A stretch of 64,000 nt of DNA from positions 1 to 64,000 of the forward strand of contig CAWBHS010000059.1 of assembly GCA_963788655.1 (NCBI GenBank), written 5' to 3'. The notes beneath the pieces are model-generated. The model saw only the letters and a program-made list of their open reading frames with translations. It was not told the origin of the DNA and searched no databases. The translations under genes and the position numbers were made by a program. This DNA is from an uncultured Verrucomicrobiae bacterium. GTDB taxonomy: Bacteria; Verrucomicrobiota; Verrucomicrobiia; Limisphaerales; JAFGQR01. Positions 4,339 to 64,000 of the stretch are shown in pieces; position 1 is the stretch's first letter, and each line of letters starts with the position of its first letter.

Positions 4339-4353
4339 AAAGCGTGTAGTCGG

Positions 4354-5520: not shown

Positions 5521-5645
5521 GCACAACGTCAAAGGACACCGGACCCCTGACTGGGGGCGAGGCTTCGACTGTGGGTTGAGGGTTGAATCATCATAACGGC
5601 AAAACTCGAAGCGAGTCAGGGGTTCGGTGCTCCGCCTTGTTCTGC
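5521..5645 (-). mobile_element. attC site, array 1
   Basis: Minus strand GCAGAAC..CACCGAACCCCTGACT...AGTCAGGGGTCCGGTG..GTTGTGC. Confidence 0.8.
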
Positions 5646-5650
5646 AATCT

Positions 5651-6031: not shown

Positions 6032-6042
6032 GGTTTTCTCTG

Positions 6043-6167
6043 GCAGAACGATGAGCTCAGCGACGTGCGCCGGGCGAAACGGTTGAGCGCACAATCCGCG
6101 CCCGAAGTCTCCCAGCACTCGGAACGGACTGGCGGGGCGCACGTTCGCTGAAGCGCTCTGGTTGGGC
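6043..6167 (-). mobile_element. attC site of the first cassette of array 1
   Basis: Minus strand GCCCAAC..GCTTCAGCGAACG...CGTCGCTGAGC-TCATC-GTTCTGC. The inverse core complements GTTGGGC at 6927-6933. Confidence 0.85.
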
Positions 6168-30183: not shown

Positions 30184-30236
30184 GGGAGGAAGAAAGGATG
30201 AATTATGAATTATGAGGGATGAAGTGCATGAGAACG

Positions 30237-30485
30237 TCAATGGCCGCCATACAGGATTGAATCGATGTCTCGAGGGCGAGTTTTACTTTTGGGGCTGGGG
30301 GTGGCGCGTTGGGCAATGGTGAAGAATGGATCGGCGGCGAGATCGCCCGAAGCGTTGCTGACCAGAGGTCCCAACTGCGCCGCCGGGTGCCCGCGGTACG
30401 AAAGGACAAAACACTCTCCGTCCGCAACGTGCCGAAGGATGCCTTTGGTGTTCTTCCGAATCTCGAGCAGGTTGATGGTCTTCAT
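30237..30485 (-). CDS. Phd/YefM-family antitoxin
   Basis: MKTINLLEIRKNTKGILRHVADGECFVLSYRGHPAAQL has the Phd-type pattern. Confidence 0.8.
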   Translation of the reverse strand: MKTINLLEIRKNTKGILRHVADGECFVLSYRGHPAAQLGPLVSNASGDLAADPFFTIAQRATPSPKSKTRPRDIDSILYGGH

Positions 30486-30752
30486 ACGGAGGAATCGTCA
30501 TCATAGACTACCGATTGCCGCCAGATTCCGTAGCGCAGGGTTGAAATTTGCCAGGTGCTACTCCATTCCAGGCAGGCTTGGGAGTTACGGACGGCTTGCC
30601 GAATGCAATTGGGCGATAAAGCAGATTGAAAATCTGCGCTACAGAAAAGTGTAGCGCCCGCCGCGTTTACGTCGCGCGAACTCACCGGCGAGGATACCTG
30701 CGCTGCGAACTCGCTGACGAAGTCCACCCTGTAGAATTGGATCATTTCGAGT

Positions 30753-31523
30753 TCAGCCTGATTGGGGGCGTTTGAGTTGAATGCGGCGCGGAGCGAACTC
30801 TCGTCCTACGGTGCCGCTGGAACGGCCATTGCCGAAACTCACTGGTTGGTCGTTGAACGTGGCTTGGACATCATCCAGTTGCTCGACTTCCACTTCCCGT
30901 TCGAATTGCGTCAAGGGGAGGACTGGCAGGCCCGCCTGCTTCAAGAGTTGCTCAAACACTGCGTTCATGCTGTCGCCCAGCACCGGGGCAATGGGGGAGG
31001 CCGGCAGGCAGCATTTACGTCCCAGCCAAATTCCCCAAATGGGATTGTGTAAGCCGGCGGCGATGGTTTCCAATGCGGGCTGGTTACCCTCCAGCAAAAC
31101 ACCGAAGCGAGCGTCCATCAGATATTCCCGCTCGGTCACCACGGCGTTTTCCTTCGGACCACCACTGGCCTTGCGGGGAATGAACTGGGCATGGGTCGTC
31201 TTGTCGTAACCGCCGCCAACAGTGTGGTAGTCCCTCAAACGTCGGCTGAGTCGCGGAACGTAAGCGGCTTCCGAACGCCGCGCACGGCTTCGCGGCAGCG
31301 AAACGCTGGTCAGCCGCAACGCCGCGATGGCGGCCAAGGTTTCCCGTTCGCGGGCCGAGCCTTTGGGCACTCCCAATGCCGCCGCCAGCAGACCGGCAAT
31401 GCCGCTTTTGCTGGGATGATGATTGGTGCCACGCCGTTGGAAGCGTGAGGCGGTGCCCCACGATTGCAATGGGCCATCAAGCAGGAAGCCGAGGCAGCCG
31501 TTAGCAGGATGTTCAGAGGACAT
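30753..31523 (-). CDS. cas5e: Type I-E Cas5 (CasD)
   Basis: LDGPLQSWG..PSKSGIAGLLAAALG, DYHTV and LGRKCC. Confidence 0.97.
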   Translation of the reverse strand: MSSEHPANGCLGFLLDGPLQSWGTASRFQRRGTNHHPSKSGIAGLLAAALGVPKGSARERETLAAIAALRLTSVSLPRSRARRSEAAYVPRLSRRLRDYHTVGGGYDKTTHAQFIPRKASGGPKENAVVTEREYLMDARFGVLLEGNQPALETIAAGLHNPIWGIWLGRKCCLPASPIAPVLGDSMNAVFEQLLKQAGLPVLPLTQFEREVEVEQLDDVQATFNDQPVSFGNGRSSGTVGREFAPRRIQLKRPQSG

Positions 31524-32541
31524 GGTTCACCAGTTCCTGGGTAAAGGTGTTGAGGTCGCTTTCGGGGATTTCCAGTTCCTTGACGGGCGCGAGGCTCCAG
31601 GTCTGCTTGAGCTGCGCATGGTGTTTCTTGACTCGGTCGATAGCTGCTTTTTCCCAGCCGCTGCGCGACCAGACCGGTTCTTCGAAGGCATTGATCAATT
31701 GCACCGGTTGGCCCTGATCTTTGTACAAGCCCAACACGTAACTGGGGAAGGTGTGGGCGTTCATCGAGTTCTTGCGAGCACCCGGCACGGCCATCAGCGT
31801 GGCCCGGATGAAGGCGTCCACGACTTTTTGCCGCTGTTCCTGAGTCAAACCGCCCAGGTGCTCGTCGTCGGCCAGCAAGCCGAGATTGAGCGCGGTATAA
31901 CGATAGTAAAGGGCAGACGTGAATTCCAGGGTGCCAATCATGCCGGCGCCGGCGTCTTCCGCGTCGCCCTTGCGATCATCCACGGCCGAAAAGAAATCGA
32001 TGTCGTTCTCAGCTTGGTGAACGGACAGGGCGTGACTGAACATGGCGGCGCCTTCGACGTTCAGCGTGGCGTCATTGGCGACCATGCGACCGAACAGGGC
32101 GATGTCAGCGGCATCCAATCGCGAGGCTTTGCGGCAAGCCTTTTTGGGGTCTTCGCCGCCGGCGACTGCGGTCGCGATTTGATCGATTTCGCCCGGTGAC
32201 AAATAGACGGCGGTCGTGACTTGCTCGGGATTTTTGCTATCGGGCTTGGAAAACTTCTCCAAGATTTCCGTGGCCTTGGCGGTTGCGACTTTTTCGTCCA
32301 AGCCTTTAGCTTTGAGTGCGGTGGTGAACGGCTCGAGCAGAATACGGCTGCGAATGCCGGCAAACAAAGGATCGGGCTCCAGTTCGCGGGCCAGCAGCCG
32401 CACGGCGCGCTTCAAACACTGGCTGGACAGACGGGCCCGATTGACGCCGCCGAACACGGCGCTTTTGGGCGCGCCAACGTCGTCACGGTTCAAGCAGGAG
32501 ACGGGGAAGGATTGGAGAATATGGAGTTCGATGAGTTTCAT
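31513..32541 (-). CDS. cas7e: Type I-E Cas7 (CasC/Cse4)
   Basis: IELHILQSFPVSCLNRDDVGAPK, SSQCLKR, DIALFGRM and DFFSAVDD. Confidence 0.97.
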   Translation of the reverse strand: MKLIELHILQSFPVSCLNRDDVGAPKSAVFGGVNRARLSSQCLKRAVRLLARELEPDPLFAGIRSRILLEPFTTALKAKGLDEKVATAKATEILEKFSKPDSKNPEQVTTAVYLSPGEIDQIATAVAGGEDPKKACRKASRLDAADIALFGRMVANDATLNVEGAAMFSHALSVHQAENDIDFFSAVDDRKGDAEDAGAGMIGTLEFTSALYYRYTALNLGLLADDEHLGGLTQEQRQKVVDAFIRATLMAVPGARKNSMNAHTFPSYVLGLYKDQGQPVQLINAFEEPVWSRSGWEKAAIDRVKKHHAQLKQTWSLAPVKELEIPESDLNTFTQELVNHVL

Positions 32542-32612
32542 GCGATTGGTTGGTGGTTATTAGTTAGGTGTTGAGAGTTGAAACATGCGAGGGGGAGCGA
32601 TAGCTTTTGCCC

Positions 32613-32819
32613 ATGAGCACGGTAAAAGAAATCGAAGCTGCCATTGAAAAACTGCCCCGCCAAGAATTGTGGCAGTTGAAGGCGCATTTGGACTGCCGCT
32701 GCGAAGCGGAATGGGACGCGCAAATTGAAGAGGATGCACGGCCGGACGGTCCGTTGGACAATCTAGCACAGGAAGCCATCGCTGAATTCAAGGCGGGCCG
32801 CTGCACTCCGTTGCCGTGA
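32613..32819 (+). CDS. Putative antitoxin
   Basis: MSTVKEIEAAIEKL...WDAQIEEDA...G.LD.LA..A; overlaps the toxin start (GTGA). Confidence 0.75.
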   Translation: MSTVKEIEAAIEKLPRQELWQLKAHLDCRCEAEWDAQIEEDARPDGPLDNLAQEAIAEFKAGRCTPLP

Positions 32820-33077
32820 GGCACGCCACCACACCGGATTTCTGGAGGCACTATCGGTTGCTGCCGTCTAACATTCGGCGGTTGGCGCGCAAGAACTACC
32901 GGCTGCTGCGGGAGAATCCCCAGCATCCGAGCCTGCACTTCAAGCCGGTAGGGCCGCATACCTGGTCGGCTCGTGTCGGAATTAAATATCGGGCGTTGGC
33001 GGCCCAGTCCGGGGCGAACTTCATCTGGTTTTGGATTGGGTACTCATGACGAATACGAGCGCTTAATCGGCGGCTGA
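32816..33077 (+). CDS. RelE/ParE-superfamily toxin; frameshift near the C-terminus
   Basis: FW..Y..LP, HPSLHFK, WSARVG..YRAL and WFWIG, with THDEYERL restored by removing one base. Confidence 0.8.
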
Positions 33078-33719
33078 AAGCGGCGCCAACGCCAGCAGGC
33101 CGAAGCCGAACGACTTGGCGGAACCGATGCCGTGGGAAAACGCTTCGAGGAACTTGGCGCGGTCGGACACGGTCAACACGCCTTTGAATTCCATGCCCTG
33201 CAACACGCCGTGCATGGCTTTGGCCGCCGAACCGTTTCCCGGCTTGAAGAAGCGTTCCTTACGCGCCGGATGAATGCGCAGCTTGGCGGTGTCCACTTGG
33301 AAGCCCCCAGCGTCAGCTTTCCGCGCCAGCCAGGCTTCGAGGGCTTCACGCTGCGTCAGCGGCACGCGGACGCCATTCTTTTTGCGCGTGCCATCCGGAA
33401 GATCCACACGCAATTTGCGGGTCGGGTTCGCCCGCAACTGGAAGGCGTATTGGCGGTGATCAAAGAAATCCTCCGGGATCGACTTGGTTTCCCAGGTATC
33501 GGTCGGACACCAATCCGGTCGGGCCGGTGCGTCAGAGGACAACAGCAACAGTTGAAAGCCCCGGTCTTGCACATCCAGGCGCGTGAGAAAATCGCGAGGC
33601 GCATCGTCACGTCCAGGAAATGCTTCCCACACGGCTTGGTGCCAGCGGTAGGCGTCGCGCAGACCGCGTTTGAAGGCCAGTTCGTAATCGACAAAAGCGC
33701 GGGAGAGAAACTGCGTCAT
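33063..33719 (-). CDS. cas6e: Type I-E Cas6 (CasE/Cse3)
   Basis: DAYRWHQAVW, FQLRANPT and the GIGSAKSFGFGLL glycine-rich loop. Confidence 0.95.
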   Translation of the reverse strand: MTQFLSRAFVDYELAFKRGLRDAYRWHQAVWEAFPGRDDAPRDFLTRLDVQDRGFQLLLLSSDAPARPDWCPTDTWETKSIPEDFFDHRQYAFQLRANPTRKLRVDLPDGTRKKNGVRVPLTQREALEAWLARKADAGGFQVDTAKLRIHPARKERFFKPGNGSAAKAMHGVLQGMEFKGVLTVSDRAKFLEAFSHGIGSAKSFGFGLLALAPLSAAD

Positions 33720-34264
33720 GGCGCGACCTCCATTTCCGCAGTGGGCGTTGGCTCGCTCTCGGGCAGTGCGGGCGCGCTCCAATACTCTCTCGCCCATTCC
33801 ACCAGAACCCGTTTTGGATTCGACGCAAACGCGCTCAGGTCATCGAACAACCGGGCATAGTCAATGGCTTTGCCCGAAGCCTTGGCCATTTTGGCGAGGT
33901 GCATGATTTGGTTGCACAAGTCGGGCTGCGTTTCACAGGCGAGCAGACGCCGGAACCGGCGTTCAAACGCCTCTTCACGTCCTTGCGCCAGATGCCGGCA
34001 GGTAACGCCGAAGTTGCCGATTGGCTGATGCTCGGGATGCAGCGCGTATAGCGCGCCGACCGTTTGGTACACCAACCGAAGCTTGGGCTCGAAGGCAAGC
34101 GAGCCGGCCAACGCGCCCAAAGCCGGCCAGGCTTGTGATTCGGTGGTGGGACTCAGCGCCCGGCGCAGTTCCGCCAGGCGGCCGCGATCTTTTTTCTCGG
34201 TCAGCTTAAGCAGCCGTTCGACGAACGACTGGGCCAATGGTGATGGTTCGGATGTTTTTTTCAT
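33716..34264 (-). CDS. cse2: Type I-E small subunit Cas11 (Cse2/CasB)
   Basis: RGRLAELRR, FERRFRRLL, IDYARLFDDL and WAREYW. Confidence 0.9.
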   Translation of the reverse strand: MKKTSEPSPLAQSFVERLLKLTEKKDRGRLAELRRALSPTTESQAWPALGALAGSLAFEPKLRLVYQTVGALYALHPEHQPIGNFGVTCRHLAQGREEAFERRFRRLLACETQPDLCNQIMHLAKMAKASGKAIDYARLFDDLSAFASNPKRVLVEWAREYWSAPALPESEPTPTAEMEVAP

Positions 34265-35689
34265 GTAGATTCCTTGGGGGGTTTTGGCGGACGAAGTTTG
34301 CGCAGTCCGACGGCAAAAGCTTGAATCTGGCGGGGTGTTTCCCGGGCACACGCATATTGATAGGCTTCATGAGCAGCCCGGCGAACCGAACGTGTCCAAT
34401 CGACATCGGCTTGCCAAAAGTCTTTACCCTCCAGCAGTGCGACATTCTGGATCACTGCCATGAGCTCGGGCCAGTGCTGGTCCAACGCGTTCCAGTAATG
34501 GCGTTCGGCCCGAGCTCGATCCGGCGGAGCTTTCAACACGGCGGCACAGTCGCTGACCGCTTTGCCCAAGCGGTCACGCCAGGCATTGGCCAATTCGACG
34601 CCCCGTTCGTAAATGGGCTGCCGGTCTTCTAAAAGCAGTTCGCGCGGCACGTCGTAAACCGCTTCCACCGTGTCTTCGTATTTACCTTTGCCGTCGGTCA
34701 CGAGCGCGCCGAGCCAGATCCGTTGGAAGGGCGCGGGGTCAGGTCGCTGGAGAGGCAGCGGCCGGTTGCCTTTCAAATGCTGCCGCGCTTCCACGACATG
34801 CTGCAAGTCCCGCCAGGGTTGCTTGTTCAAGTCCGCGCGCAGGAGGTAGCGTTCCTCTTTGTCCTTTTTGGAAATGGTGAGCACCGTTGCTGCCGCTTCG
34901 CGGTATTCCTCGAACATTGGATGCGAAATGCCAGGCTTGGCCATTTCAAAGAAGAGCCCGTTCTCGTTCAGCCAAATCTGTCGGGTGACCGGGACCAATC
35001 GTCCAAGGAAACTCAACGTGACATTGTGGACGAAGTCTTTGTCATCGAAATCGATGGGAGCTTCCCACACGGGACGGCCAAATCCCTGCGGAAAAACTCG
35101 GCCAGCGGTTTCACGGTCCACCCCGTTGGCGAGGATGCTGTGCAGCAGGCTGTCACCCACGAGCCACGTTTGGAGAAAATGGCGGTCAAGGCACGGTGAC
35201 TTGCCAGTGTAACCTGCGCCAATGCTGGCGGACATGTTTTGAAAACTCAGCAACGCCAGCGCAAACTCGGCAGGTTCCAAATGCCGCGCCCCGCCGCCTT
35301 CGTGGTCAAACAGGGTAGGATTGTTCCCGCTGGCGCGATGGAACAGCATTTTGCTGGCTTCGAACTCGGACATGGCAGTGGCGCGGCACTGCAAGAACCG
35401 CGGCCCCGAGCCGAACAGTTCGAAAGCCGAGCGCCATTTCTCAAGATATGCCGCCGCCGCTTGCGGCAATTTATCCGCAGCTTCGTCCCAGCCCCATTCA
35501 TCGGCGGGGCCGTCCAAGGCTCGCTTGTGCCACGCAGACGAGCAGACGCATCAAGGCTATGCGTTCGTGCGGACGCACGGCCAGGTCGGCAATCCGGTCG
35601 CCCTCGCGAAACACGTCAGCGAGACTGATCAGACGGTTGGTTCCGTCGCGATAGGTGACTGGGATCCAAAGATCAAAACCAAGATTCAT
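34261..35689 (-). CDS. cas8e: Type I-E large subunit Cas8e (Cse1/CasA); frameshift near 35520
   Basis: MNL..D.WIPV, RLL, FELF..GPRFLQ and SGNNPTLFDH; located directly after cas3. Confidence 0.9.
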
Positions 35690-38282
35690 CGTCTTCTTCT
35701 TTCCATGCAGGTTCAGTTGGTTTGGCCACCCGAGCGATTTTCACTCCGGTGCTGGTTTGGTATTCGAGCGCAAAAGCCGGATCGCTGGCGGGAATGGAGA
35801 TGGCGCCGTCGTCAGGGTCGAGCACCCCAAAGACTGCCGTGCCTTTGAAATGCAGGCGAAGCCAGTCAGGTTGCGCCTCGGTCCCTAAAGCCGAACGGAT
35901 GGCGTAGAGCGGTAGCCGCACCGAATTACGGTGAATGGCCGCTGCCACCGGGAATCGCCATTCAAATGAACTGGCGGCAAGCGATTCACCATTAAGGAAA
36001 CGAAGGGCAACGTCGCCGTGGTTGGTGGGTTCCGGCGCCGCCGTCAGCAGCAGCAGGTTGCCGCTGGGAAAATCGTCCCACCGCGTTTGCACGCCTTCCT
36101 CGTCGCGAAGTTGAATGTTTTCGAAGATGTTGGTTCGGCTTACCGCCTTGTTTCGCATGGCAGCAATTTGTTTGGCCAATTCGCGGCGAAATGAAATCCA
36201 GCCGGGTGGTTCATCGTTTTCATTTTGCTCCGCATACGTCGCCTCCAATAGCGCGCGTATGTCATTCGGCAGCTTTACCGCTTGCCGGTGCTGCCACACC
36301 TCGAGCGAACGCAGCAGCACATAAGGCGCATAAACGCGCGCCGACTTGCCCAAGGCTGCTTTGATGGTTTTGGCTTCAGCCGTGACCGGAAACTCTGGGC
36401 GCAGAATCCACACTTCCGGATGGCTGCGAGGACGTTGTTCCCGCGGATGCCGCCACAGTCTGCCCAGGCGTTGCAGCAGCATGTCCGTCGGCGCGAGGTC
36501 GGTAATCAACAAGTCGGCATCAATGTCCACGCTTTGTTCCACGACCTGCGTGGCCACGAGAACGCAGCCGCGCGGGCGAGCGGCATTACCCTTTCTCAGC
36601 GCTGCCATCCATTTCGTTTCCTGCTGCTCGCGTTGGAACTGAGGGAAACGGCTGTGCAACAATCCGATTTCCGGGCCACCTTCGCGCCGGGTTCCGTTCA
36701 ATTGCTCGTAAAGCGTCTGCGCTTCGGCGACAGTATTCTTGATTAACAGCACACAAGCCCCGGCCTCGGCGGCGGCGCAGATGGGTTCCAGCAGTTCCGC
36801 ATTCTCTTGCGGACGGCAAGAAACCTGAACGGTGCGATGTGAGTCTCTGGAGGTTTCCGCAGAATGTGATTCAACTTCTCCTCGTTCGTTCACCAGGCTG
36901 ACCAACGGGTAGGCATCCGTTGGCGACACGGATTTGGCACCGGCGAGCGCCAGCAGTTCCGTTCGTCGTTGAGCCGTGAGCGTGGCGGATAATATGATGA
37001 CTGTGCATCGCAAGGCCAGCAGCCGCTCAATCAGCCTATCCATGACCGAACCGGTGTAAGCATCGTAGGAATGAACCTCGTCGAGAATGACGACCTTGCC
37101 CGCCAAGCCAAACAATCGAACGGCCAGATATTTGGCTGCCACGGCTCCCAGCAGCGCCTGGTCAATGGTCCCGACTCCGTAGCGGGCCAGCAGTGCCTGT
37201 CGCGAAGACGCAAACCAGGAACGGCCTTGCTCAGCATGCTCATTGGCCTCGGCATCCGCTGCGGCCGGCAACAGCCGAATTTGCAAGTCTTGCTGGAGCC
37301 AGGAATTGGCGTGCGCCAGGGGATGGTCGGTTTCCTCGGCCAGCGCGTTGCGAAGGAAAGCCTCCACGCGCTCGTGGATGCGATTGCTCGTCAATTGCGT
37401 CGGCAGCGCGAAATACACGCCATGGTTTTGGCCGTTCGCAATCAACCGATAGGCAGCGGCCAAGGCGGCTTCCGTTTTTCCGCAACCCATCGGCGCTTCG
37501 ATTATGTAAAGGCCGGGTTGTCGGATGGTCTCCAGGCACACCTGCTGGAGCGAATTGGCCTCAAACCGCGGAGAATCGCCATCCGCAAAGAGTTCTCCGA
37601 ACTCCACTCCCAAACGCAATGCACCTTTGCCCCAGCGAATGGTCCGCAGCGCCGACTCGGCGAGCTTGGCGGATTTCTCCGGTGTGTAAGTCGTCCCGAG
37701 CGGGAAGAAGAATTCGTTGGATCCCAACCAATCGCTCACGGTGATCCACCCGGCTACCAGCAGCAATTGCTCGTCAGATTCGGGAGGCAACTCGGGCAAC
37801 GATCCGAATAGGCCCGTCAACCAAGTGAACAACTTTTCTCGCTCTGGTTGGAGCCCGGTTGCTTCGATTTCCTTCCGGCCAACAGGGCCTTGCCCCAGAA
37901 ACCGTCCGTGGTGACCGCCCACCGCCACGGCCCAATTTTGAATTTTGCCGCGAGGAAGCTTCCTGACGAAGAAGTTCTGGCTGACGGCGGCATGGTTGCT
38001 TTCCGAAAACTGCCAACCCGACGCAATCGCTTCCTCCGCCAGCCCATTTTCCACCAGCCAGTCCGGGCATTTGCGCAAGAACCCAACCGTGATTTTTCCT
38101 ATGTCGTGGCCGGCGGCAAGAATGGAGCATCCCGGCGGCAGTATCCGCCTTACAGATTCTGGCAAGCAGGAGCGTATCGCCTCCCCCACGCACCCCACAT
38201 TGAGACAGTGATCCTGCACGCTGAGGCCGGGCTTGCCGTCTGGCGTGGTTTTCGCCCAAAAATGAATTCCTTCCCAGTTCAT
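35673..38282 (-). CDS. cas3: Cas3 HD nuclease-helicase
   Basis: WAKT, H..V, HDIGK, HHG, SDWLGS, APMGCGKTE, DEVH, SAT, HSRF, ATQVVEQS and QRLGRLWRH. Confidence 0.98.
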   Translation of the reverse strand: MNWEGIHFWAKTTPDGKPGLSVQDHCLNVGCVGEAIRSCLPESVRRILPPGCSILAAGHDIGKITVGFLRKCPDWLVENGLAEEAIASGWQFSESNHAAVSQNFFVRKLPRGKIQNWAVAVGGHHGRFLGQGPVGRKEIEATGLQPEREKLFTWLTGLFGSLPELPPESDEQLLLVAGWITVSDWLGSNEFFFPLGTTYTPEKSAKLAESALRTIRWGKGALRLGVEFGELFADGDSPRFEANSLQQVCLETIRQPGLYIIEAPMGCGKTEAALAAAYRLIANGQNHGVYFALPTQLTSNRIHERVEAFLRNALAEETDHPLAHANSWLQQDLQIRLLPAAADAEANEHAEQGRSWFASSRQALLARYGVGTIDQALLGAVAAKYLAVRLFGLAGKVVILDEVHSYDAYTGSVMDRLIERLLALRCTVIILSATLTAQRRTELLALAGAKSVSPTDAYPLVSLVNERGEVESHSAETSRDSHRTVQVSCRPQENAELLEPICAAAEAGACVLLIKNTVAEAQTLYEQLNGTRREGGPEIGLLHSRFPQFQREQQETKWMAALRKGNAARPRGCVLVATQVVEQSVDIDADLLITDLAPTDMLLQRLGRLWRHPREQRPRSHPEVWILRPEFPVTAEAKTIKAALGKSARVYAPYVLLRSLEVWQHRQAVKLPNDIRALLEATYAEQNENDEPPGWISFRRELAKQIAAMRNKAVSRTNIFENIQLRDEEGVQTRWDDFPSGNLLLLTAAPEPTNHGDVALRFLNGESLAASSFEWRFPVAAAIHRNSVRLPLYAIRSALGTEAQPDWLRLHFKGTAVFGVLDPDDGAISIPASDPAFALEYQTSTGVKIARVAKPTEPAWKEEDDESWF

Positions 38283-43647: not shown

Positions 43648-44638
43648 CTGCCGGCAAGATGCCGGCAGCACATTGCGCAACGTGCTGCTGGCGTCCCGCC
43701 GGCAGAACCGAACACGAACTGTGGGTTAAAATTCCCGCCGCACCAGCAAGGCGTTGCAAAAAATGGAACCCCCCTCCCTATTCGATGAGTGGTTGGCGAG
43801 GCGCCAACCACAGCGCCCGGGGCGGGCGCGCTCCCCGAGGGGAATTGAAATGCGCTGGTTTGGTTCGGCAGCCCTTCCTGCAATCGATCTGCCGGCAAGA
43901 TGCCGGCAACACGCTGCGCAACGTGCTGCTGGCGTCCCGCCGGCAGAACCGAACACGAACTGTGGGTTAAATTTCCCGCAGCACCAGCAACGCGTTGCAA
44001 AAAATGGAACCCCCCTCCCTATTCGATGAGTGGTTGGCGAGGCGCCAACCACGGCGCCCGGGGCGGGCGCGCTCCCCGAGGGGAATTGAAATGCGCTGGT
44101 TTGGTTCGGCAGCCCTTCCTGCAATCGATCTGCCGGCAAGATGCCGGCAACACGCTGGCGCAACGTGCTGCTGGCGTCCCGCCGGCAGAACCGAACACGA
44201 ACTGTGGGTTAAAATTCCCGCAGCACCAGCAACGCGTTGCAAAAATGGAACCTCTCTCTCCTTTCCGATGAGTGGTTGGCGAGGCGCCAGCCACGGCGCC
44301 CGGGGCGGGCGCGCTCCCCGAGGGGAATTGAAATGCGCTGGTTTGGTTCGGTAGCCCTTCCTGCAATCGATCTGCCGGCAAGATGCCGGCAGCACGCTGC
44401 GCAACGTGCTGCTGGCGTCCCGCCGGCAGAACCGAACACGAACTGTGGGTTAAAATTCCCACAGCACCAGCAACGTGTTGCAAAAAATGGAATCCCCTCC
44501 TTATTCGTTGAGTGGTTGGCGAGGCGCCAGCCACAGCGCCCGGGGCGGGCGCGCTCCCCGAGGGGAATTGAAATGCGCTGGTTTGGTTCGGTAGCCCTTC
44601 CTGCATTCGATCTGCCGGCAAGATGCCGGCAGCACGCT
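43648..44638. repeat. Tandem array of about 4.1 x 241-bp units built from REP-like palindromes
   Basis: ctgccggcaagatgccggca starts at 43648, 43889, 44130, 44372 and 44612. Confidence 0.95.
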
Positions 44639-56236: not shown

Positions 56237-58315
56237 TCAACTGTGGGGAGGTGTCCACCGAAACATCATCACGTGGTTCAGACCGGCGTTTTCGAGGAAC
56301 AGGACATACTCACCGTTCTTGCGGAGGGTGACGTTCAGGGCGTTGTCCGAGTCAACGCAACCGCCGCTACCCTTGAAGCCGTTGATGTCCGGACGAATCG
56401 TGCCGACGTAGCCGCCGTCGTCCAACTGGTGGACGCGGATCAGTCCGTAGCCATAAGCGACGAAGAGGTATTCGCCGCGGGCCTGCATCGCCACCGGCGC
56501 GCCGCCGCCGTAGCCGGTGTCTGGAGTGTACGACTTATCATTGAGCGGCAGATTGATTTTCCAGTGCTTGATCCTCTTGGTCGGATCGGACCAATGATCG
56601 TAGCGGACCAGCACGTTGCACGCGTTCTCGTCCGTGCCGGGTGAACCGCCGACGATCATGAGGTCCTCACCCGGGACGTAGAATAGCCGCCGAAGCCGGT
56701 CGCCGGTGAACTCCGGCGGGTAATGGTAGGACACCTCGGAGGTCCGGCGATAGATGGGGTTGCCGCGCGGGTCAATCCCTTCGCAAGGGAGATGGAAGAT
56801 CGTCCCGTCTCCCGAGCATTGCCAGATGCCGGCCGCGGCATCCAGGTGCATGAAGCCCCAGCGGGGCTTGCGGTCCACTGCGGCGAACTCCACGGCGTCT
56901 GGCGCACCGTTGCCGTTCGCGTCGGTCCAGATGAAGGTTTCAGCGTCCTCGGGCCAGCGTTTGCCATTCCCAGGGCGCCAGGTGCTGGCACCCGCCACAT
57001 ACCCGCACGGCGCCGCCACACAGCCTTGCTCGCCGAACTTGTAGATCTCCAGGTTGCCGGTGCCCTGAGCGCCGCAGTAGAGGAAGAGATTGCCGCCGAT
57101 CCGCCGCACGCCATTGATCAGGCGATGGCTCGGACCGTGGAGGTCCGTCACCCGGCTATCACTGGGATACTTGAAGCGATCAACGCTCAGTCCAATCAGT
57201 GACTGCTCCTTACCAGGAGGCTTGTTCCAGTCCATGCTGAAGACGTTCTCCTTGGTGTAAACGAGGTTCTCATTGGCTGGGTCGGTACAGGCCGTATCCA
57301 ACCAGTTGCCCAGCCCGTAAACGTCCCAGAGGCGCTCTCCGGCTGGGGAATAGGCTTCGATCAGGGCGTTATACCAGGAGCCAAAGACACTGGCCACATA
57401 GAGATTGCCGGCCGCGTCGAAGCCGAGGCCGCGAATCCAATGGAACTTCTGGGGCTGGTATTTTCCCGGCTCGCCCGAAAAGATGCCGCCTTCCGTGCCA
57501 AAGGTGCCCACCTTCCTGGGCGTCCCCGCGACATCGTAAATCCAGATCTGGCTGTGCCGGTTCAACCCGCCCACCAGCAGTTGACCCTTCGGACCAAACG
57601 TCAGCGCACAGGGATTCTCGAAGTCGGTGATCTCCGGCCCGGGCTGACCCTGCTTGGAGAAGGAGATGATCTTCAGGCCGCCCCGATCGAACGGCTCCTT
57701 GCCGGGCTTGCCTTGAACGACCCAAATCTGACCGTTATCACCGACCGCGATCGGCCCTGGGCTCGGGGCGGCGAAGGAGCGAACCTCCTTCATCGTCGCC
57801 GTCTCCAGGACCCGGACTCTGCCTGCCTTGGAATCGCTGAGGTAAAGCTCGCCGCTGCGCAAGGCCAAGCCATGAATGCTGCCGCCGGTGCTCGGTGTGC
57901 GGTTGTAGGCTTCGTCCCCGAGGCGCGTGCGGAAGAGGCCGGCCCCGGTCCCGATGTAAACGTGGGCATCGTCCACCGCGACCGCGGATGCGCTGCTGCC
58001 AAAACCGCTGTCATAGTCGTACTTGGTGACGAACTTGCCGGCCTTATACGAGGCGACTCCGCCGTAGCCTTCAGCCACACCCGCGGAGAAAACCGTCCCC
58101 TCCGGCGTCACGGCAATAGCGATGGCGGTGACCGGCACCGATTGGTGCCCCTTCTGAGTGGCGAACGAGTTCATGAGCCAGGAATGGACGACGGTGCCAG
58201 GCAGGTCGCTCCCCGACAGGGTGTCTCCGGCTTGGACACGACTCAGGTCGAGCATGCACAGGCAGGCCAGCGCAAATTTATAGAAATGGTGTTTTCGCAC
58301 AAATATCCGGTTCAC
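56237..58315 (-). CDS. Secreted beta-propeller-like protein (692 aa) carried as a gene cassette
   Basis: Signal peptide and NHL/SMP-30-like repeats. Flanked by core GTTGGGC (58342-58348) and complementary inverse core GCCCAAC (56221-56227); its own attC is truncated. Confidence 0.75.
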   Translation of the reverse strand: MNRIFVRKHHFYKFALACLCMLDLSRVQAGDTLSGSDLPGTVVHSWLMNSFATQKGHQSVPVTAIAIAVTPEGTVFSAGVAEGYGGVASYKAGKFVTKYDYDSGFGSSASAVAVDDAHVYIGTGAGLFRTRLGDEAYNRTPSTGGSIHGLALRSGELYLSDSKAGRVRVLETATMKEVRSFAAPSPGPIAVGDNGQIWVVQGKPGKEPFDRGGLKIISFSKQGQPGPEITDFENPCALTFGPKGQLLVGGLNRHSQIWIYDVAGTPRKVGTFGTEGGIFSGEPGKYQPQKFHWIRGLGFDAAGNLYVASVFGSWYNALIEAYSPAGERLWDVYGLGNWLDTACTDPANENLVYTKENVFSMDWNKPPGKEQSLIGLSVDRFKYPSDSRVTDLHGPSHRLINGVRRIGGNLFLYCGAQGTGNLEIYKFGEQGCVAAPCGYVAGASTWRPGNGKRWPEDAETFIWTDANGNGAPDAVEFAAVDRKPRWGFMHLDAAAGIWQCSGDGTIFHLPCEGIDPRGNPIYRRTSEVSYHYPPEFTGDRLRRLFYVPGEDLMIVGGSPGTDENACNVLVRYDHWSDPTKRIKHWKINLPLNDKSYTPDTGYGGGAPVAMQARGEYLFVAYGYGLIRVHQLDDGGYVGTIRPDINGFKGSGGCVDSDNALNVTLRKNGEYVLFLENAGLNHVMMFRWTPPHS

Positions 58316-58350
58316 TTTCGGTCGGAGGCAGCGTTTCCGCCGCCCAACGA

Positions 58351-60060
58351 ATCAATATAGCCTATCCGCAGTTATTCACCGGAGGCCAGGCGCGCTCCGC
58401 GTTGCTCCGCCGCAGCCGCCGGTGAATAACTGCGCTGTCCGACATGATCACGATGATTCATACTTATTCGCATCCGTTGAATTGGTACCGTAGGGTATCC
58501 CGGTTTTCCCGCCTCCGTGGGCCAGGTCTGCGAACGACCAGTCGCCTGGACGACTTTGAGCTTTATCGACCGGCTCACGGGGCGGGCTTGCACCCTCTAA
58601 CGACTCCTCAGAGGGCGTTCACTGTTGCAGTGAGAACTCTCCTATATTGCCGTCGCTGGGTCAAGCCTGCGGGAAAACCACACCACCGAAAACCATGAAT
58701 GATTCGACGATGAAGCACGATTATCCGTATGACCTGGTCATCGGCCTGGACCGCTCCGACGCCACGGCCGACCTGCACACCATTGACGTGCATACCAACG
58801 GCCGCACCAACCAAACCATCGCGACCAGCCCCGAAGCGCTCCATGACTGGCTGGCCCAATTGCGCCAGCAACATCCCCAAGGCCGGGTGGCGATCTGCCT
58901 GGAACAACCTGCCGCCAATCTGCTGGCCTTCCTGGAAAGCTATGCCTGGATCACCCTCTACGCCATCAACCCGATGACGTTGAAAAACTTCCGGGAAGCC
59001 TTCGTCACCAGTCGCGCCAAGGACGACACTCAGGATGCCTATTATTTAGCTGAACTACTCCTGACTCATCCCGACAAGCTGACCGTGTGGACGCCCGAGG
59101 ACAGCGCCACCCGCCACCTGCAACAAGCGGTCACGCACCGCCGCGCGGTGGTGGACGAACGCACCGAGTTGACCAACCGGCTGCAAGCCCTCTTAAAGGC
59201 TTATTTTCCGCAGGCGTTGACCCTTTGTGGCCAGGAACTGTGGCGGCCCATGGCCACCGATTTGCTCCTAAAATGGCCCACCTTGGCGGCGATCAAAAAA
59301 GTCAAACCAGCGACCCTCAAACAATTCTACCGCCAGCACAATTCCCACAGCGCTTCCCTGCTGGAGCAGCGGCTCCAATGCATTAGCCAGGCGATTCCGC
59401 TCACGGAGGAAACCGCCCTGGTGGAAACCTACGCCCTGCGCGTGCAATTGATCGGTCGCCAACTCCAATTGGTGGTCGCGGCCATTGCCACGTACGACCA
59501 GCAGATCCAGGCGCGGTTTATCGCCCACCCCGATTACGCGATCTTCAAGAACTTGCCCGGGGCGGGACCGGTGCTGGCGCCGCGGTTGTTGGCCACGATG
59601 GGCAGCGTGCGCGAGCGCTTTCCCACCGCCGTCAGCTTGCAGTGCTACAGCGGGATTGCGCCGGTGACCAAACAGAGCGGCAACACGCGGCACGTGCATC
59701 GGCGCTACCTCTGTCCGAAGTTTTGCCGGCAGAGCTTTCATGAGTTTGCGGGCAGCTCGATCCTGTTCAGTCGTTGGGCGGCGGCGTATTATTTGCAGCA
59801 GCGGGAAGCGGGCGCGAACCATCACACGGCGGTGCGGGCGCTGGCCTACAAATGGCAGCGGATCATCTGGCGGTGCTGGCAGCGCCAGGAGGTCTATGAG
59901 GAGGCGCGTTATGCCGAAGCCCTGCGGCGCCACGGCAGCCCGATCGTGGGATTGTTCGATCAGATTGAGTTAGGCAAAAATCCCTATACCAGCCGCAAGA
60001 AAAAGGCCGCCCAGCGGGCGAAGAAAAAATGAAAAACCCGTTGACCGTTCACCTCAGAGA
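58351..60060 (+). mobile_element. IS110-family element inserted in an attC site (shared GA core; left end inferred)
   Basis: Removing it rejoins gcccaac-GA-tgagctcacc, restoring the attC right arm GGTGAGC-TCATC-GTTGGGC. TTGACC lies near the right end. Confidence 0.7.
58695..60032 (+). CDS. IS110-family DEDD recombinase/transposase
   Basis: IGLD, CLE, AKDDTQDA, LPGAG..LA and YSGIAPVTKQSG. Confidence 0.95.
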   Translation: MNDSTMKHDYPYDLVIGLDRSDATADLHTIDVHTNGRTNQTIATSPEALHDWLAQLRQQHPQGRVAICLEQPAANLLAFLESYAWITLYAINPMTLKNFREAFVTSRAKDDTQDAYYLAELLLTHPDKLTVWTPEDSATRHLQQAVTHRRAVVDERTELTNRLQALLKAYFPQALTLCGQELWRPMATDLLLKWPTLAAIKKVKPATLKQFYRQHNSHSASLLEQRLQCISQAIPLTEETALVETYALRVQLIGRQLQLVVAAIATYDQQIQARFIAHPDYAIFKNLPGAGPVLAPRLLATMGSVRERFPTAVSLQCYSGIAPVTKQSGNTRHVHRRYLCPKFCRQSFHEFAGSSILFSRWAAAYYLQQREAGANHHTAVRALAYKWQRIIWRCWQRQEVYEEARYAEALRRHGSPIVGLFDQIELGKNPYTSRKKKAAQRAKKK

Positions 60061-60149
60061 TGAGCTCACCTATGACTGCCCCTCTACGACTCTCGAACTC
60101 GCGGAAGCGGCATCGCGGGGCAGTCATTAGGTGCAGCGCCTTGTTCGGC
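60061..60149 (-). mobile_element. attC site, array 2, interrupted by IS110
   Basis: Minus strand GCCGAAC-AAGGC-GCTGCACCTAATGACTGCCCC...GGGGCAGTCATAGGTGAGC-TCA, then the IS. Confidence 0.85.
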
Positions 60150-60299
60150 GATCCCGCGTCGTCCGTGGCTGCTCTCAAAGCAATACTCGATGACGTTCGT
60201 GCTGTCCCAGGACAACGAGATAATCATGGGAGATACCGCCTGCAAATATCTCGGTGATGACGTGTTACGGCACATCGTCGCAGCGGTGAACGCCTATTC

Positions 60300-60408
60300 G
60301 CCGAACGTGGAGGTCACCGACCGGCAGAAAACCAGAAAGGAAACGGATGCCAAACAAACATGAAACTGACACGCAGGCAGCCGGTTCGCGTGAACCGATT
60401 GGTTCGGT
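60300..60408 (-). mobile_element. attC site, array 2
   Basis: Minus strand ACCGAAC..GGTTCACGCGAACCGGC...GCCGGTCGGTGACC..GTTCGGC. Confidence 0.8.
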
Positions 60409-60591
60409 GATCCCGGCCCCGTGGGGTGGCATGGAATGGAAACATGCCTTGATGGCTCGAAACCTAATGTCATCCCGAAAATGGATATGCCGGACCGAGT
60501 GGGGGCGTGAATTTGTTATTGCGTTCAAAGAACCGGGTCCAATTGCGCTACTCTGCATTGAGGATCGGCTGTGGCCAGTTAAGCCGTATTC

Positions 60592-60687
60592 ACCGAACGC
60601 CAAGAGGACCGATGAGCGGCACCCCGAAAACGTTCGAACTGTAAACTGACGCGCTTGCCGCTCATTCGGTCGCTCGATTGGTTAGCT
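60592..60687 (-). mobile_element. attC site, array 2
   Basis: Minus strand AGCTAAC..GACCGAATGAGCGG...CCGCTCATCGGTC..GTTCGGT. Confidence 0.8.
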
Positions 60688-60948
60688 GATCGCATTATAA
60701 AAGGCATAAATCATCCACAAGGTCAACATCCCAGCTATAGCACCTGCAATCTTGTCCGCACCAGACTTCCGGAATAAAGCCACCGCCGACATGGCCAAGC
60801 ATAGAAGCAAACTGATCGAACCCACCGCCCAGACGTAATGCGGAATCGGCCGACCATTTGCAGGAGTCAAAGCGGGAAGAAATACTCCAGCAAAAAGTGC
60901 CATAATGATCGCGCTGATTCCTCTCCAAGATGGGATGTAGGCCGCCAT
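60682..60948 (-). CDS. Cassette small membrane protein, three TM helices, 88 aa
   Basis: Hydrophobic ORF starting just after the intron 3' end; the stop codon overlaps the inverse core. Confidence 0.7.
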   Translation of the reverse strand: MAAYIPSWRGISAIIMALFAGVFLPALTPANGRPIPHYVWAVGSISLLLCLAMSAVALFRKSGADKIAGAIAGMLTLWMIYAFYNAIS

Positions 60949-60958
60949 AATTCTTTAG

Positions 60959-61775
60959 ACCGGGTAGGCGTAGGCGGTCACCCGCCCACGCCCCCCTAAG
61001 AACCGGACTTGAAAGTTTCCCTTCATCACGGCTCAAGCCTCTCCAAGGCCACCCCGGATGCGGGGGACCCGCGTAACCAGGAGGCCGGTGACACCCAAAG
61101 GCGTCATGGACCTTCCCAATCCCACTTGGCAATACCGGTCGGCGGCCATATCGCGCTCGGCTCCTTTGGGCCGCAGCACCGAGAGGCACCAAGCGACGGG
61201 CGTCGCTCGTCCTATGCTTCTCTCGCTTGAAGGGGTTCCGCTGATTTTCTTGCCAGGAGACACCAGATCGACGTGGGCATATCCGGTCCATTACCGACCG
61301 GCCTTGGCTTGTTCGATCCTCTTCATGCTGCCTCCCCTGGGCCTGCCTTGCGGTCGGCTTGCCTGGATACTCTCCAGGCGGGAACTGGCAGCTTTTCCAT
61401 GTTCCGCATTCTCCACAGGATGGGTTAGGTCCACTCTCTACACCGGCGGTGCGCCATTCGCGTCGGGCTACGTTAGACAGCCCGAACCTGACCGCTGGCC
61501 TTGTTTTGGCCGGAGCCTTAAAACAGCCTCGTTTGGCTCGTTCCTCTGACGATGCTTGCAAGTGTTCACATGGGTTGACCCTACCATCCGATTCTAGCGC
61601 CGCACCCGGATTGAGGCTCCCAGGCTGGCTACATTGTCGGGAAGGCTTCACACCCTGGACAGTAGCCTTGCGGCCGCCCGTCCAACGCATGCTTCCCTGG
61701 AATACCTGCCGCGAAAGGCAGGACTGAGTCAGGTTGCCCATGCTCAGCAGTGATGAATGCGACTTCATGTCACAA
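60959..61775 (-). mobile_element. ORF-less group II intron, copy 2 (817 bp), inserted in an attC core
   Basis: Same length and sequence as 4354-5170, apart from a 2-nt difference seen near 61452. Removal restores GTTAGCT, the exact complement of the cassette inverse core AGCTAAC. Confidence 0.9.
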
Positions 61776-61899
61776 CTAACGCCGAGATGACCGACAGCTT
61801 TGGGAGCGCCAGCCTCGACTGGAATTATCGGTTTCAAGTTTCATGGTCGATGTCCGCTGCGAGGCGGGTGGGCTGTTCGGTCAATCGACATGGTTGGAC
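61776..61899 (-). mobile_element. attC site, core interrupted by intron copy 2
   Basis: Minus strand GTCCAAC..TGACCGAACAGC...GCTGTCGGTCA..GGCGTTAG, then the intron. Confidence 0.85.
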
Positions 61900-61902
61900 A
61901 TT

Positions 61903-62402
61903 TCATTTGTCCAGTCACTCTACCAAGAATGTCCTCACGTGGTAAAGCGCCCCAGTAGCGGCTGTCCAGTGCGTTTGTCGTATTGTCGCCCAGCAGGAAA
62001 TATGAGCCTGCCGGCACCCGATACGGATACGTAATGGAAGGCGAATGACGGGGTGCGATGTAGTGAATGCCAGATAAACGCGCAGGCGGCTCTTGCCGTT
62101 GTCCATCTATGTAAATGGCGTCGTCACGAAATTCCAGTTGCTCGTTTGGCAGGGCGATGACCCGCATTACCCAGAAATCCTGAGCGACTTTTCCCGGCGC
62201 AGGTGTGGGATGAAACACGATGACATCCCAGCGGCTGGGCGCAGCCCTCTGGTAGGCTGCCATGTCAGCTACGACGACTTCATTTGGCTGGATCGTCGGT
62301 GACATGGAGGTACTGCTCTGCCGAAAGCTCGCGCTGCGAGTCCGAACATCAGACGAGAGCCGATAGCAACAGCAGAATCGATGGAAAATAGATGCGTGTC
62401 AT
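61903..62402 (-). CDS. Cassette signal peptidase I (S26 family), frameshifted
   Basis: STSMSPTI, RWDVIVF, VMRVIALP and YFLLGDNTTNALDSRYWG. Confidence 0.8.
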
Positions 62403-62404
62403 GT

Positions 62405-62497
62405 GTCCAACGCTCCGGCTCACCGACGCCGGGCCAATGATGTCCGATTGTCAACCGAGACGCGATCCCGGCGTTCGGTGCAGCCGGCTTGTTGGAC
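62405..62497 (-). mobile_element. attC site, array 2
   Basis: Minus strand GTCCAAC-AAGCC-GGCTGCACCGAACGCCGG...CCGGCGTCGGTGAGCC-GGAGC-GTTGGAC. Confidence 0.88.
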
Positions 62498-62501
62498 GCC
62501 T

Positions 62502-62913
62502 TCATTTCGTCTTCAAGTCCTTCGGTTCCACAACTTTGATGACAACGAAATACCGGTAAAACTTCCAGCCAGCCTGCGGCCGGGTCACTTCCCTACCTTC
62601 CTCTTTGGCGGCCTGCTCGACCGCTGGCGGCGTACCGATCATCCTTCCCATCTCGTACCCGCGAAAAATGCAGCGCGCGTTTTTGGGCAAGGAATCCACA
62701 TTGTCCACTGCAATATCGACCGGGCTATCCAGCTTCTTGCCATTGAGCATATCCACGCGCAAGGTGCGTCCTGCGTCACTTCGGTCCTTCTACCCGGACA
62801 CCTTGAATGGTCAGGTACGTGCCCAGCGGATGGCCGAGCCTGCCAGCGGGAATGTCTTGGGCATTCGCGAGGCTGACGCCGAAGACCAGTAAGAATAGAA
62901 GTGCGGTCTTCAT
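62502..62913 (-). CDS. Cassette secreted hypothetical protein, frameshifted
   Basis: Signal peptide MKTALLFLLVFGVSLANA joins ORF 62502-62762. Confidence 0.6.
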
Positions 62914-62922
62914 TGTTCTTTC

Positions 62923-63048
62923 GTCCAACGCTGCGCCTCACCTACTGCCGCCGGGGAGGCAGGTGGAGCGCAAACATAATAATGAAATTCTCCCAAGCTG
63001 CCGAGCGGAAAGCGCGGGCGGCGGTTAGGTGCAGGCGCCTGGTTCGGC
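62923..63048 (-). mobile_element. attC site, array 2
   Basis: Minus strand GCCGAAC-CAGGC-GCCTGCACCTAA...TAGGTGAGGC-GCAGC-GTTGGAC. Confidence 0.85.
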
Positions 63049-63568: not shown

Positions 63569-64000
63569 TCATTTAAATGCTTGGATGTTCTCAGCCACGA
63601 ATCGATGCAAAATCGGTTCCAAGTCGAGATTGCTACAGTTCGTCATCGAGCTTATCGAGGGCTCCTCTTTGCTCCGGCGTCAGGTTTCTCCGATCGCCAT
63701 GTATTCATCCAAATCCTCCGGTGGCTCGCCGTTAGGAAACACTCTCATTGCTTCCTTAAGAATTTCGGCATGGCGAGTCGCGCCGACGCCAACCAATCCT
63801 GCATAAGCATCTTGGAGCGGGACTGCTGCCGCATTGCCGAACCATCCCGCAAGCCCATTAATGCTCACGTTACGACGGAAATCGTAAGCGCACCAAAAAT
63901 GAAACTCCGCATCGCTTTCAACACAAGGCATTGCGTCGAGAGCGTTCATTAATACAAGCAAAGCGCTATCGCTGTCCGGTTCCTGCAATATCTTGTCGAT
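63569..64000 (-). CDS. Cassette DMP19/DUF4375-like protein, partial and frameshifted
   Basis: V..NGL.GWF.N...A..GL..VGA...AEIL..A...FP pattern; acidic sequence. Confidence 0.55.

Follow-up and report, generated by a model that had tools for sequence, protein, structure and literature searches.

A probable attC-targeting IS110-group insertion sequence with a candidate guide RNA upstream of its recombinase gene

Results

The element and its boundaries

The window, the whole stretch of 64,000 nucleotides (nt) of DNA that was analysed, carries at 58350-60059 on the + strand an IS110-family element of 1710 base pairs (bp), which splits a hairpin-forming attC-type site of integron gene cassettes. 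The element consists of a non-coding left end of 344 nt (58350-58693, with the start codon ATG at 58695), a gene for a recombinase of the DEDD type and a right end of 27 nt (Table 1). It is very probably an intact insertion sequence of the IS110 group that targets attC, with a guide (bridge or seek) RNA encoded in the long left end, upstream of the DEDD recombinase gene. An earlier reading of the letters, referred to here as the sequence-only reading, had placed an IS110 element in an attC site at 58342-60070. The nature of the element and of its site stands, but the interval takes in the R' box of the target at its start and further target DNA at its end. The motifs on which that reading drew, namely a perfect 16-bp stem, AACGA at 58533-58537 and again at 58599-58603, and copies of the element's ends, were all found in place. 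The dinucleotide GA is common to both junctions in the window (only G in most relatives) and, because of this, the ends of the element are uncertain by 1-2 nt.

A scan of species-representative genomes gave 37 related loci, 31 of them from metagenome-assembled genomes (MAGs) labelled Akkermansia or with a name beginning Verrucomicrobi. The left flank terminates in AACG in 33 of 35 copies, the exceptions being L013 and L025, and in those 33 the AACG sits 2-8 nt ahead of the conserved left-end motif. This upholds the left end first proposed, and two other positions that had been considered for it, about 58452 and about 58604, are internal to the element. In the upstream-region alignments AACG is followed in the relatives by 3-7 variable bases and then by an invariant motif (..ATATAGG..ATCCG..). 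In the downstream-region alignments the right end reads ..ACCTCAGAG, and the right flank opens with the 9-nt motif [GA]T[GA]A[GA][CG]T[CGT]A in 31 of 32 copies. The left ends of L014 and L016 have their first 30-60 nt tandemly duplicated, and L014 has TATCGG in place of TATAGG. No sub-terminal inverted repeats were found, the longest repeat between the element's ends being 4 nt, under the shuffled mode of 5. By this architecture, with the candidate RNA upstream and without sub-terminal inverted repeats, the element is assigned from its sequence to the IS110 group.

The recombinase

The recombinase matches PF01548 (DEDD_Tnp_IS110, 3.5e-26) and PF02371 (Transposase_20, 5.4e-15) and scores 163.3 bits against NCBIfam model NF033542, 'IS110 family RNA-guided transposase', which has a cutoff of 140. 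A single-sequence search of solved structures gave no match at E <= 0.001; a profile of 24 relatives matches the transposase structures of ISCro4 (2e-11) and IS621 (2.6e-10). Across 24 recombinase sequences D19, E70, D110, D114 and S328-G329 are invariant or nearly so and, by analogy with the family, D19, E70, D110, D114 and S328 would be the catalytic residues. At 445 amino acids (aa) the protein falls within the range of 395-455 aa quoted for the IS110 subgroup (PMC11187229; this and the other papers cited here are drawn on in extract). At least 4325 related proteins at E <= 0.001 were present among the 8000 candidates examined, and the best 120, the window's own protein aside, share 59-74% identity and lie mostly on contigs of 1.4-4 kb.

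The target is a split attC-type site

Joining the flanks of the element (58342-58349 and 60060-60149) restores a 98-nt attC-type hairpin in which 14 of 14 tested arm pairs form, in arms of 3 + 6 + 10 pairs. A 5-nt unpaired spacer (G58349 plus ATGA) follows the R' box and a second spacer precedes the R'' box, while the right arm holds two unpaired bases, T 60127 and C 60134, with a 6-bp stem between them. In the bottom strand of attC it is the arm facing the AAC triplet that carries the extrahelical bases, of which the far one is a conserved T and the first and last are 6 bp apart (PMC5027507). Given that the unpaired bases of the window's site are on the arm opposite AAC, the + strand is by this rule the attC bottom strand; the cassettes are therefore read on the - strand and the element lies antisense to them, as had been proposed. 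Credible cassette genes are indeed found on the - strand, coding for a signal peptidase S26 (61841-62305, 9.5e-28), after which an attC comes, and for a DMP19-like protein (63680-63988, 5.3e-11). Two open reading frames (ORFs) of the + strand, 60190-60363 and 60347-60649, were rejected as cassette genes: they overlap attC arms and have no family match, and the credible ORFs are on the - strand. Read on the top strand, the element lies in the L'-R' spacer, 1-2 nt before the crossover between G and TT, at the 3' end of the attC. The uninterrupted site at 6043-6167 (+) contains, at 6047-6059, a sequence identical to the 13 nt formed by joining the element's flanks and, on the strength of this identity, is taken as an empty copy of the element's target within the window.

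An attC detector (14 arm pairs), built by the author from the layout of these same sites, found 12 sites in the window scoring at least 13/14, of which 7 are perfect and uninterrupted and all of these on the + strand (Table 1). At the same threshold the controls gave 4 sites in the reversed sequence of the window and 2, 0 and 0 in shuffles. The related loci hold 16 further perfect attC-like sites on the element's strand and 0 on the opposite strand, with 1 in the reversed-sequence control. The right flanks of the relatives form imperfect hairpins that close in a GTT box and, together with the left AAC box, have the attC layout. Two loci, L008 (402.9 bits) and L035 (372.8 bits), and only these, have integron integrases above the TIGR02249 cutoff of 265, situated 0.6-1.0 kb from the element and divergent from the cassettes. 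The flank hairpins, the detector and these two integrases bear out the expectation that the targets of other copies would be attC-like. Arrays of attC are present in the window and in 8 of the 37 loci.

It might be argued that the targets are not integron attC sites at all but another repeated hairpin, similar to repetitive extragenic palindromes or to the ends of a module with tyrosine-recombinase or IS91-like genes, in which case RNA-guided targeting would still hold. Three observations weigh in that direction and against the attC assignment. First, there was no integron integrase among the 53 selected window ORFs tested, so that the window presents attC clusters without an integrase in view. 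Second, a strict attC test (at least 12/14) was passed by 14 of 28 insertions, while 12 scored 6-11 and failed, several for a missing GTT box, and 2 were unscored; by eye, L001 runs off its contig, and L003, L006, L008, L009 and L011 keep the arms without the GTT box. Third, in L004 (4372-5184), L005 (2479-4724), L006 (565-2615), L014 (3-1952 and 4421-6679) and L034 (2-1950) tyrosine recombinases adjoin the target hairpin that score 78.7-180.8 bits, below the integron-integrase cutoff of 265, and Y2-type transposases stand beside four of them. However, such a reading is very improbable for four reasons: the sites combine a box of the RYYYAAC type, an unpaired spacer of 5 nt and, on one arm, two unpaired bases 6 bp apart of which the far one is T, in keeping with attC (PMC5027507); they form one-strand arrays with short ORFs; integron integrases adjoin the arrays of L008 and L035 in the canonical divergent arrangement; and group II introns occur in the same arrays. 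The attC assignment is therefore retained.

Some further observations concern these arrays. The attC-like sites of the window fall in two clusters, 3819-6167 and 58342-63048, which are 52 kb apart, have the bottom strand on + throughout and are separated by ordinary chromosomal genes. Transposases of the IS91-type Y2 class pair with the tyrosine recombinases in L005, L006, L014 (twice) and L034, the contig of L004 ending first, and these pairs may be a mobile module that uses similar hairpins. Six loci carry further, different IS110-family transposase ORFs in their flanks (L019 251-1489, L024 2119-3654, L027 58-1599, L028 939-2027, L029 2163-3281 and L032 1011-2168), several DEDD elements thus collecting in these arrays. 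A group II intron is contained in two copies of an 826-nt repeat on the - strand, 4353-5178 and 60958-61783, which differ once, by 2 nt at 4848-4849; Rfam matches are to D1-D4 (4993-5118, 61598-61723) and to domain V/VI (4354-4431, 60959-61036). The intron seems to begin right after the R' box GTTAGTT of an attC, sense to the cassettes, and no reverse-transcriptase ORF fits between its domains in the repeats. A short ORF on the - strand at 55410-55721 matches the start of an RVT_1 domain (1.6e-05, below the cutoff); it lies beyond a 692-aa NHL-repeat gene that comes after the split attC and may be a remnant of a group II intron protein.

The left end encodes a candidate two-loop RNA with a conserved fold

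The minimum-energy fold of 58351-58700 has -141.1 kcal/mol (z = -5.27, with 0 of 100 shuffles as stable) and includes the 16-bp stem. Conservation across 31 aligned copies, namely the window and 30 loci out of 38 sources, is seen in the final 180 nt of the left end (58502-58679). Left out of this alignment were L009 and L011 (identical to L008 and L010), L014, L020, L024 and L037 (without the anchor motif) and L022 (owing to an insertion in its target loop), and MAFFT misaligned the 3' tail of L010 and L032. In the consensus fold there are two stem-loops, both of which have a distal stem of 4 bp and a large internal loop. The outer stem around them was not predicted by the consensus fold and was placed by hand; 74.6% of its cells pair and it has double-sided changes at 4 pairs. 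Over 49 pairs and 30 distinct sequences 92.1% of the cells are paired, compared with 31.6-50.6% when the partners are slid. Double-sided changes occur at 13 of the 49 pairs against a shuffled mean of 6.7, and 0 of 500 shuffles reach the observed value, although the copies are phylogenetically related and all shuffle tests on them consequently overstate independence. The candidate bridge RNA that had been proposed upstream of the gene thus has a two-loop layout with compensatory support.

Further upstream, the 5' hairpin at 58367-58434 is also conserved, with 9 of 19 consensus pairs changed on both sides. It starts at about the position where a transcript from a junction promoter, formed by the abutted ends of an excised circle, would start, and could be a 5'-terminal stabilising hairpin. 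A sigma-70 scan of 58250-60200, the integrated copy, gave 0 promoter-like sites, and in the 16 copies scored TTGAC(G/C) or TTGTCG of the right end would come to lie 17-20 nt from TATAG(G/C) of the left end in a putative junction. In L021, at about 2990-3040, a GC-rich hairpin-like insert of about 50 nt (CCCCGTAAAGG...CCCACGGGG) is present just upstream of the start codon. A similar insert of about 50 nt lies inside the attC loop of L022, the RNA target loop of which has a 33-nt insert, and the inserts of these two loci look like a miniature mobile hairpin.

The putative target loop covaries with the flanking DNA

In published bridge RNA the target is bound by the first loop and the donor by the second, and in each the 5' strand pairs with the bottom strand and the 3' strand with the top one (PMC11208160); in the IS110 type the match to the bottom strand precedes, that is lies 5' of, the match to the top strand (PMC11187229). 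The 5' strand of the target loop of the window's RNA corresponds to the top strand of the R' box plus G (..C-N-AACG), the match in the window being AACG(A). AACG is conserved in this left target guide and is too invariant for covariation. Of the two AACGA motifs that the sequence-only reading had offered as guides, the first is thus supported as the left target guide; the second (58599-58603), which does not vary, forms part of the donor loop's basal stem, and nothing ties it to guiding. The main target guide was absent from that reading: the right target guide, 58557-58568, can form 10 Watson-Crick pairs and 1 G-U pair with C58348-G58349 and 60060-60068, leaving one bulged U.

The loop sequence GAGCU is matched by the flank GAGCTC in 17 copies, GACCU by GAGGTC in 3 of 3 (L018, L026 and L035) and GAGUU by GAACTG in 3 of 4 (L002, L012 and L034). 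Over 25 rows with both guide and flank (L029 having been dropped, its right end mis-located), pairing holds at 117 of 125 positions; the shuffled mean is 109.4, and 0 of 10000 shuffles attain 117. As read from these alignments, the right target guide covaries with the right flank via two independent compensatory switches, and from the switch that breaks the palindrome it can be seen that the loop complements the top strand. The varying target bases are the first bases of the L' arm, and the partner arm of the attC changes along with them; the element family therefore tracks attC sub-types. Covariation of the non-coding region with target and donor had been named as a check of the guide RNA, and on the target side it is positive.

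Two copies, L013 (left end at about 438) and L025 (left end at about 2653), lie in non-attC, non-hairpin DNA that is nevertheless target-like in sequence, with TTACG or AAACC on the left and GTGAGCT.. on the right. This favours recognition by sequence, and the two have the appearance of off-target events in which the right target guide was the main driver.

It is conceivable that the structured left end is only a regulatory leader and that the protein picks its target by the shape of the attC hairpin: the RNA stops 15 nt before the start codon, so placed that the outer stem could affect translation, the targets are structured DNA, and the proposed donor guides are matches of invariant sequence. 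However, this explanation is hardly credible for three reasons. First, the two independent compensatory switches tie the loop to the right flank. Second, the copies in L013 and L025 entered non-hairpin DNA of similar sequence. Third, the name of the family model describes the protein as RNA-guided, and RNAs of this kind are used by relatives whose structures have been solved (PMC11208158). A guide RNA in the left end accordingly remains the preferred reading.

Donor guides, crossover register and left tip

The segment CCUCAGAG (58606-58613) is identical to the right-end terminus at 60052-60059, and CUAUAUUG (58642-58649) is complementary to the left end at 58353-58360; within the window both 8-nt end matches are confined to the element. 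CCTCAGAG occurs twice in the window, at 58606-58613 and at the right end, with a chance expectation of 1.34 per window and at least two occurrences in 41 of 100 shuffles. This count is unremarkable because shuffles often match it, the notable point being that both copies are inside the element. CAATATAG likewise has two occurrences, one at the left end and one, in complementary form, at 58642-58649, with a chance expectation of 0.27 per window and at least two occurrences in 2 of 100 shuffles. It is plausible from these matches that CCTCAGAG and CTATATTG serve as donor guides.

The GA or G shared by the two junctions leaves the position of the crossover core to be derived from the copies. L025 and L034 differ in 61 of 1750 columns, 37 of them in the flanks, and the junctions of L025 read ..AAACC/ACCAA.. 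on the left and ..CAGAG/GTGAG.. on the right. A core made of the shared GA, the bases after AAC, was rejected: the L025 junctions are not derivable from a GA or GG core. A core consisting of the dinucleotide that ends in the shared G (CG or CC in the target, AG in the donor) fits all copies and is given moderate weight. On this reading the left junction of every copy would carry the target core and its right junction the donor core, corresponding to the top-strand outcome in the IS621 scheme, in which the top strands are cut after the core (PMC11208158).

The left tip that follows the core is hypervariable and, in the putative junction promoter, would form part of the spacer. Where AACG ends in the target loop, the next four bases agree with the left tip at 71 of 112 positions (28 rows with both guide and flank; shuffled mean 60.4, with 71 reached by 20 of 10000 shuffles) and with the right half of the target at only 22 of 96. 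Two copies in one MAG, L008 (700-2374) and L009 (2672-4346), which have a common right flank and different left flanks, show 2 differences in about 1.7 kb of element, both in the left tip, and the left tips of L001 and L021 differ at 3 of 5 positions. The tip could be a handshake-like extension of the 5' strand, a tuner of spacer length, or drift. These observations raise the possibility of a mechanistic variant of bridge recombination in which the 5' strand of either loop matches, beyond the core, the junctions formed by integration and not the substrates before insertion, the cores differ systematically, and the tip is rewritten at transposition or tunes the promoter spacing. As part of the same joint proposal, the uniform junction outcome across copies would be that expected from a single-strand or one-lineage pathway. 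This variant is offered tentatively and is considered unlikely.

A number of points must be set against a guide RNA of the kind described. The candidate donor-guide segments and the element ends are invariant among the 31 copies and, since both are invariant, donor loop/end covariation is uninformative; this is the other half of the check mentioned above. The candidate left donor guide has an extra base in 26 of 31 relatives and can pair within its loop, and the candidate right donor guide pairs 3-7 nt off the crossover, unlike in IS621. The left target guide is short (4-6 nt), the AACG(A) of the window is mismatched at -4, and that position shows no covariation with the flank. L023, one of the four copies with a GAACTG flank, lacks the matching guide change. 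Under the preferred register the target and donor cores differ (CG versus AG), and the register rests on one copy, L025. The left end matched no Rfam family at gathering thresholds, and 58300-58750 searched at E <= 10 gave two noise hits.

It is also possible, though not probable, that the window's copy is of the right kind but immobile, a dead relic. It is single in the window, its left target guide is mismatched to its own flank at -4, and the identical empty target at 6047-6059 is unoccupied. Such a relic is difficult to reconcile with the full-length ORF, which keeps all the family-invariant residues, with the preserved RNA fold, with a right target guide that matches its own flank over 11 pairs, or with the exact recombinase being reported on 2 contigs.

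Proposed working cycle

Taking the element to be intact and RNA-guided, the following cycle is suggested. The element would excise as a circle, in which TTGACC (-35-like) of the right end and TATAGC (-10-like) of the left end would form a junction promoter. The transcript would start with the conserved hairpin and run on into the two-loop RNA. Target binding would fall to the first loop, the 5' strand of which copies the top strand ..AACG and would so pair with the bottom strand, and the joined ends of the element itself would be bound by the second loop. The recombinase would then exchange strands at the dinucleotide ending in the shared G (CG in the target, AG in the donor). Recognition would cover the R' box, the unpaired spacer and the start of the L' arm in one sub-type of attC; given such recognition, insertion would take place, always in antisense to the cassettes, at 1-2 nt from the crossover point of the integrase, and the R' box would be split from its hairpin. 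By parting R' from the hairpin, insertion should freeze two cassettes together.

Other features of the window

The window also contains a CRISPR array at 26750-28914, with at least 37 repeat copies at a spacing of about 61 nt, adjoined by type I-E cas genes at 29335-38282 (Cas1, Cas5, Cas7/CT1975, Cas6e-like, Cse2, Cse1 and Cas3). Long tandem repeats are found at 18533-19514 (288-nt period) and 43675-44638 (241-nt period), each with 3-4 copies of 85-99% identity.

Table 1. Parts of the element, of its split target and of the attC-like clusters, in window coordinates
Feature	Position	Strand	Remarks
Left half of split attC	58342-58349	+	Bottom-strand reading: R' box GCCCAAC 58342-58348, then G; putative target core C58348-G58349 (preferred register)
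Left tip of element, AATCAA	58350-58355	+	Counterpart in relatives 3-7 nt, hypervariable
Conserved left-end motif CAATATAGC	58353-58361	+	Complementary to 58642-58649; contains -10-like TATAGC
5' hairpin with perfect 16-bp stem	58367-58434	+	Stem strands 58367-58382 / 58419-58434
Candidate bridge-RNA core	58502-58679	+	Outer stem 58502-58512 / 58669-58679 around two stem-loops
Target-binding loop (putative), 5' strand	58529-58540	+	Left target guide AACG(A) at 58533-58537, then ACCA, which is like the left tip in relatives
Target-binding loop (putative), 3' strand	58555-58568	+	Right target guide 58557-58568
Donor-binding loop (putative), 5' strand	58605-58617	+	Candidate left donor guide CCUCAGAG at 58606-58613
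Donor-binding loop (putative), 3' strand	58638-58651	+	Candidate right donor guide CUAUAUUG at 58642-58649
Recombinase gene	58695-60032	+	445 aa; DEDD_Tnp_IS110 and Transposase_20 domains
Short right end	60033-60059	+	-35-like TTGACC 60041-60046; terminus CACCTCAG 60050-60057; putative donor core AG 60058-60059
Right part of split attC	60060-60149	+	ATGA, L' arm, variable loop, L'' arm, R'' box GTTCGGC 60143-60149
Perfect attC-like sites, first cluster	3819-3914, 5169-5276, 6043-6167	+	Detector
Perfect attC-like sites, second cluster	60592-60687, 61774-61899, 62405-62497, 62923-63048	+	Detector

Discussion

Comparison with known systems

No account of an IS110 element that has its RNA upstream and targets attC was found in a literature search; the target tables in the supplements to the bridge-RNA papers lay outside the search and may include the family. 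The terms 'attC' and 'bridge RNA' were found together only in PMC11208160, where attC occurs in the title of a reference.

The closest likeness is to the IS110 group as known from IS621 and other members. The element shares with them a recombinase with DEDD and Tnp domains and a long left and short right end (PMC11208160, PMC11208158); it further appears to share with them the order of the loops, target first and donor second, with 5' strands that copy and 3' strands that complement the top strand, and the placing of the promoter boxes, with a -35-like sequence in the right end and a -10-like one in the left. There are nevertheless several differences from IS621 as described in the extracts. 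The recombinase is longer (445 aa against 328 residues in the solved IS621 chain), and the leader is about 150 nt longer, with a conserved 5' hairpin. The guides of the window's element are short on the left (4-6 nt) and long on the right (9-11 pairs), whereas in IS621 this is reversed (8-9 and 4-7). The bases after its left target guide match its own left tip, its candidate right donor guide is displaced from the crossover, its cores apparently differ (CG versus AG), and its natural target is attC. As a long-recombinase relative with guide lengths unlike those of IS621, the family may interest those who mine for bridge recombinases. The off-target copies resemble half-match events described for IS621.

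In ISEc21, which has a seekRNA, the non-coding region is likewise upstream, the bottom-strand match is 5' of the top-strand match and a junction promoter arises in the circle, but the transposase has 358 aa and the target is linear, inside transposase genes of the IS3 family (PMC11187229).

The IS1111-attC elements (ISPa21, ISPst6, ISKpn4 and ISPa25) are alike in belonging to the DEDD family, in homing to attC antisense to the cassettes and in having an RNA that matches both strands of the target (PMC11187229, PMC3001079). Their RNA, however, is downstream and they have sub-terminal inverted repeats of 7-17 bp, whereas the present element has its candidate RNA upstream, 27 nt downstream of the gene and no inverted repeat longer than 4 nt. 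They insert near the 5' end of attC (PMC3001079), while the window's element is at the 3' end, next to R', and the hosts of its family are Verrucomicrobiota. Independence from the IS1111-attC elements is argued here by architecture (upstream RNA, no sub-terminal inverted repeats) and not by a tree. On that footing the element appears to belong to a second IS110-family branch that homes to integron cassettes.

Group IIC-attC introns are another class of mobile element that homes to attC (PMC3001079), and group II introns are found in the same arrays of the window. They differ in being retroelements and not DNA recombinases; insertion near the 5' end of attC, in antisense, is described for published examples (PMC3001079), whereas those of the window are sense.

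In summary, homing to attC was known for the IS1111-attC elements and the group IIC-attC introns, and the window's element adds a third, architecturally separate lineage. This attC-targeting IS110 family, which is abundant among Verrucomicrobiota, inserts at the opposite end of attC, 1-2 nt away from where the integrase crosses over. Its three guide variants, which follow three attC sub-types, furthermore make it a natural retargeting series.

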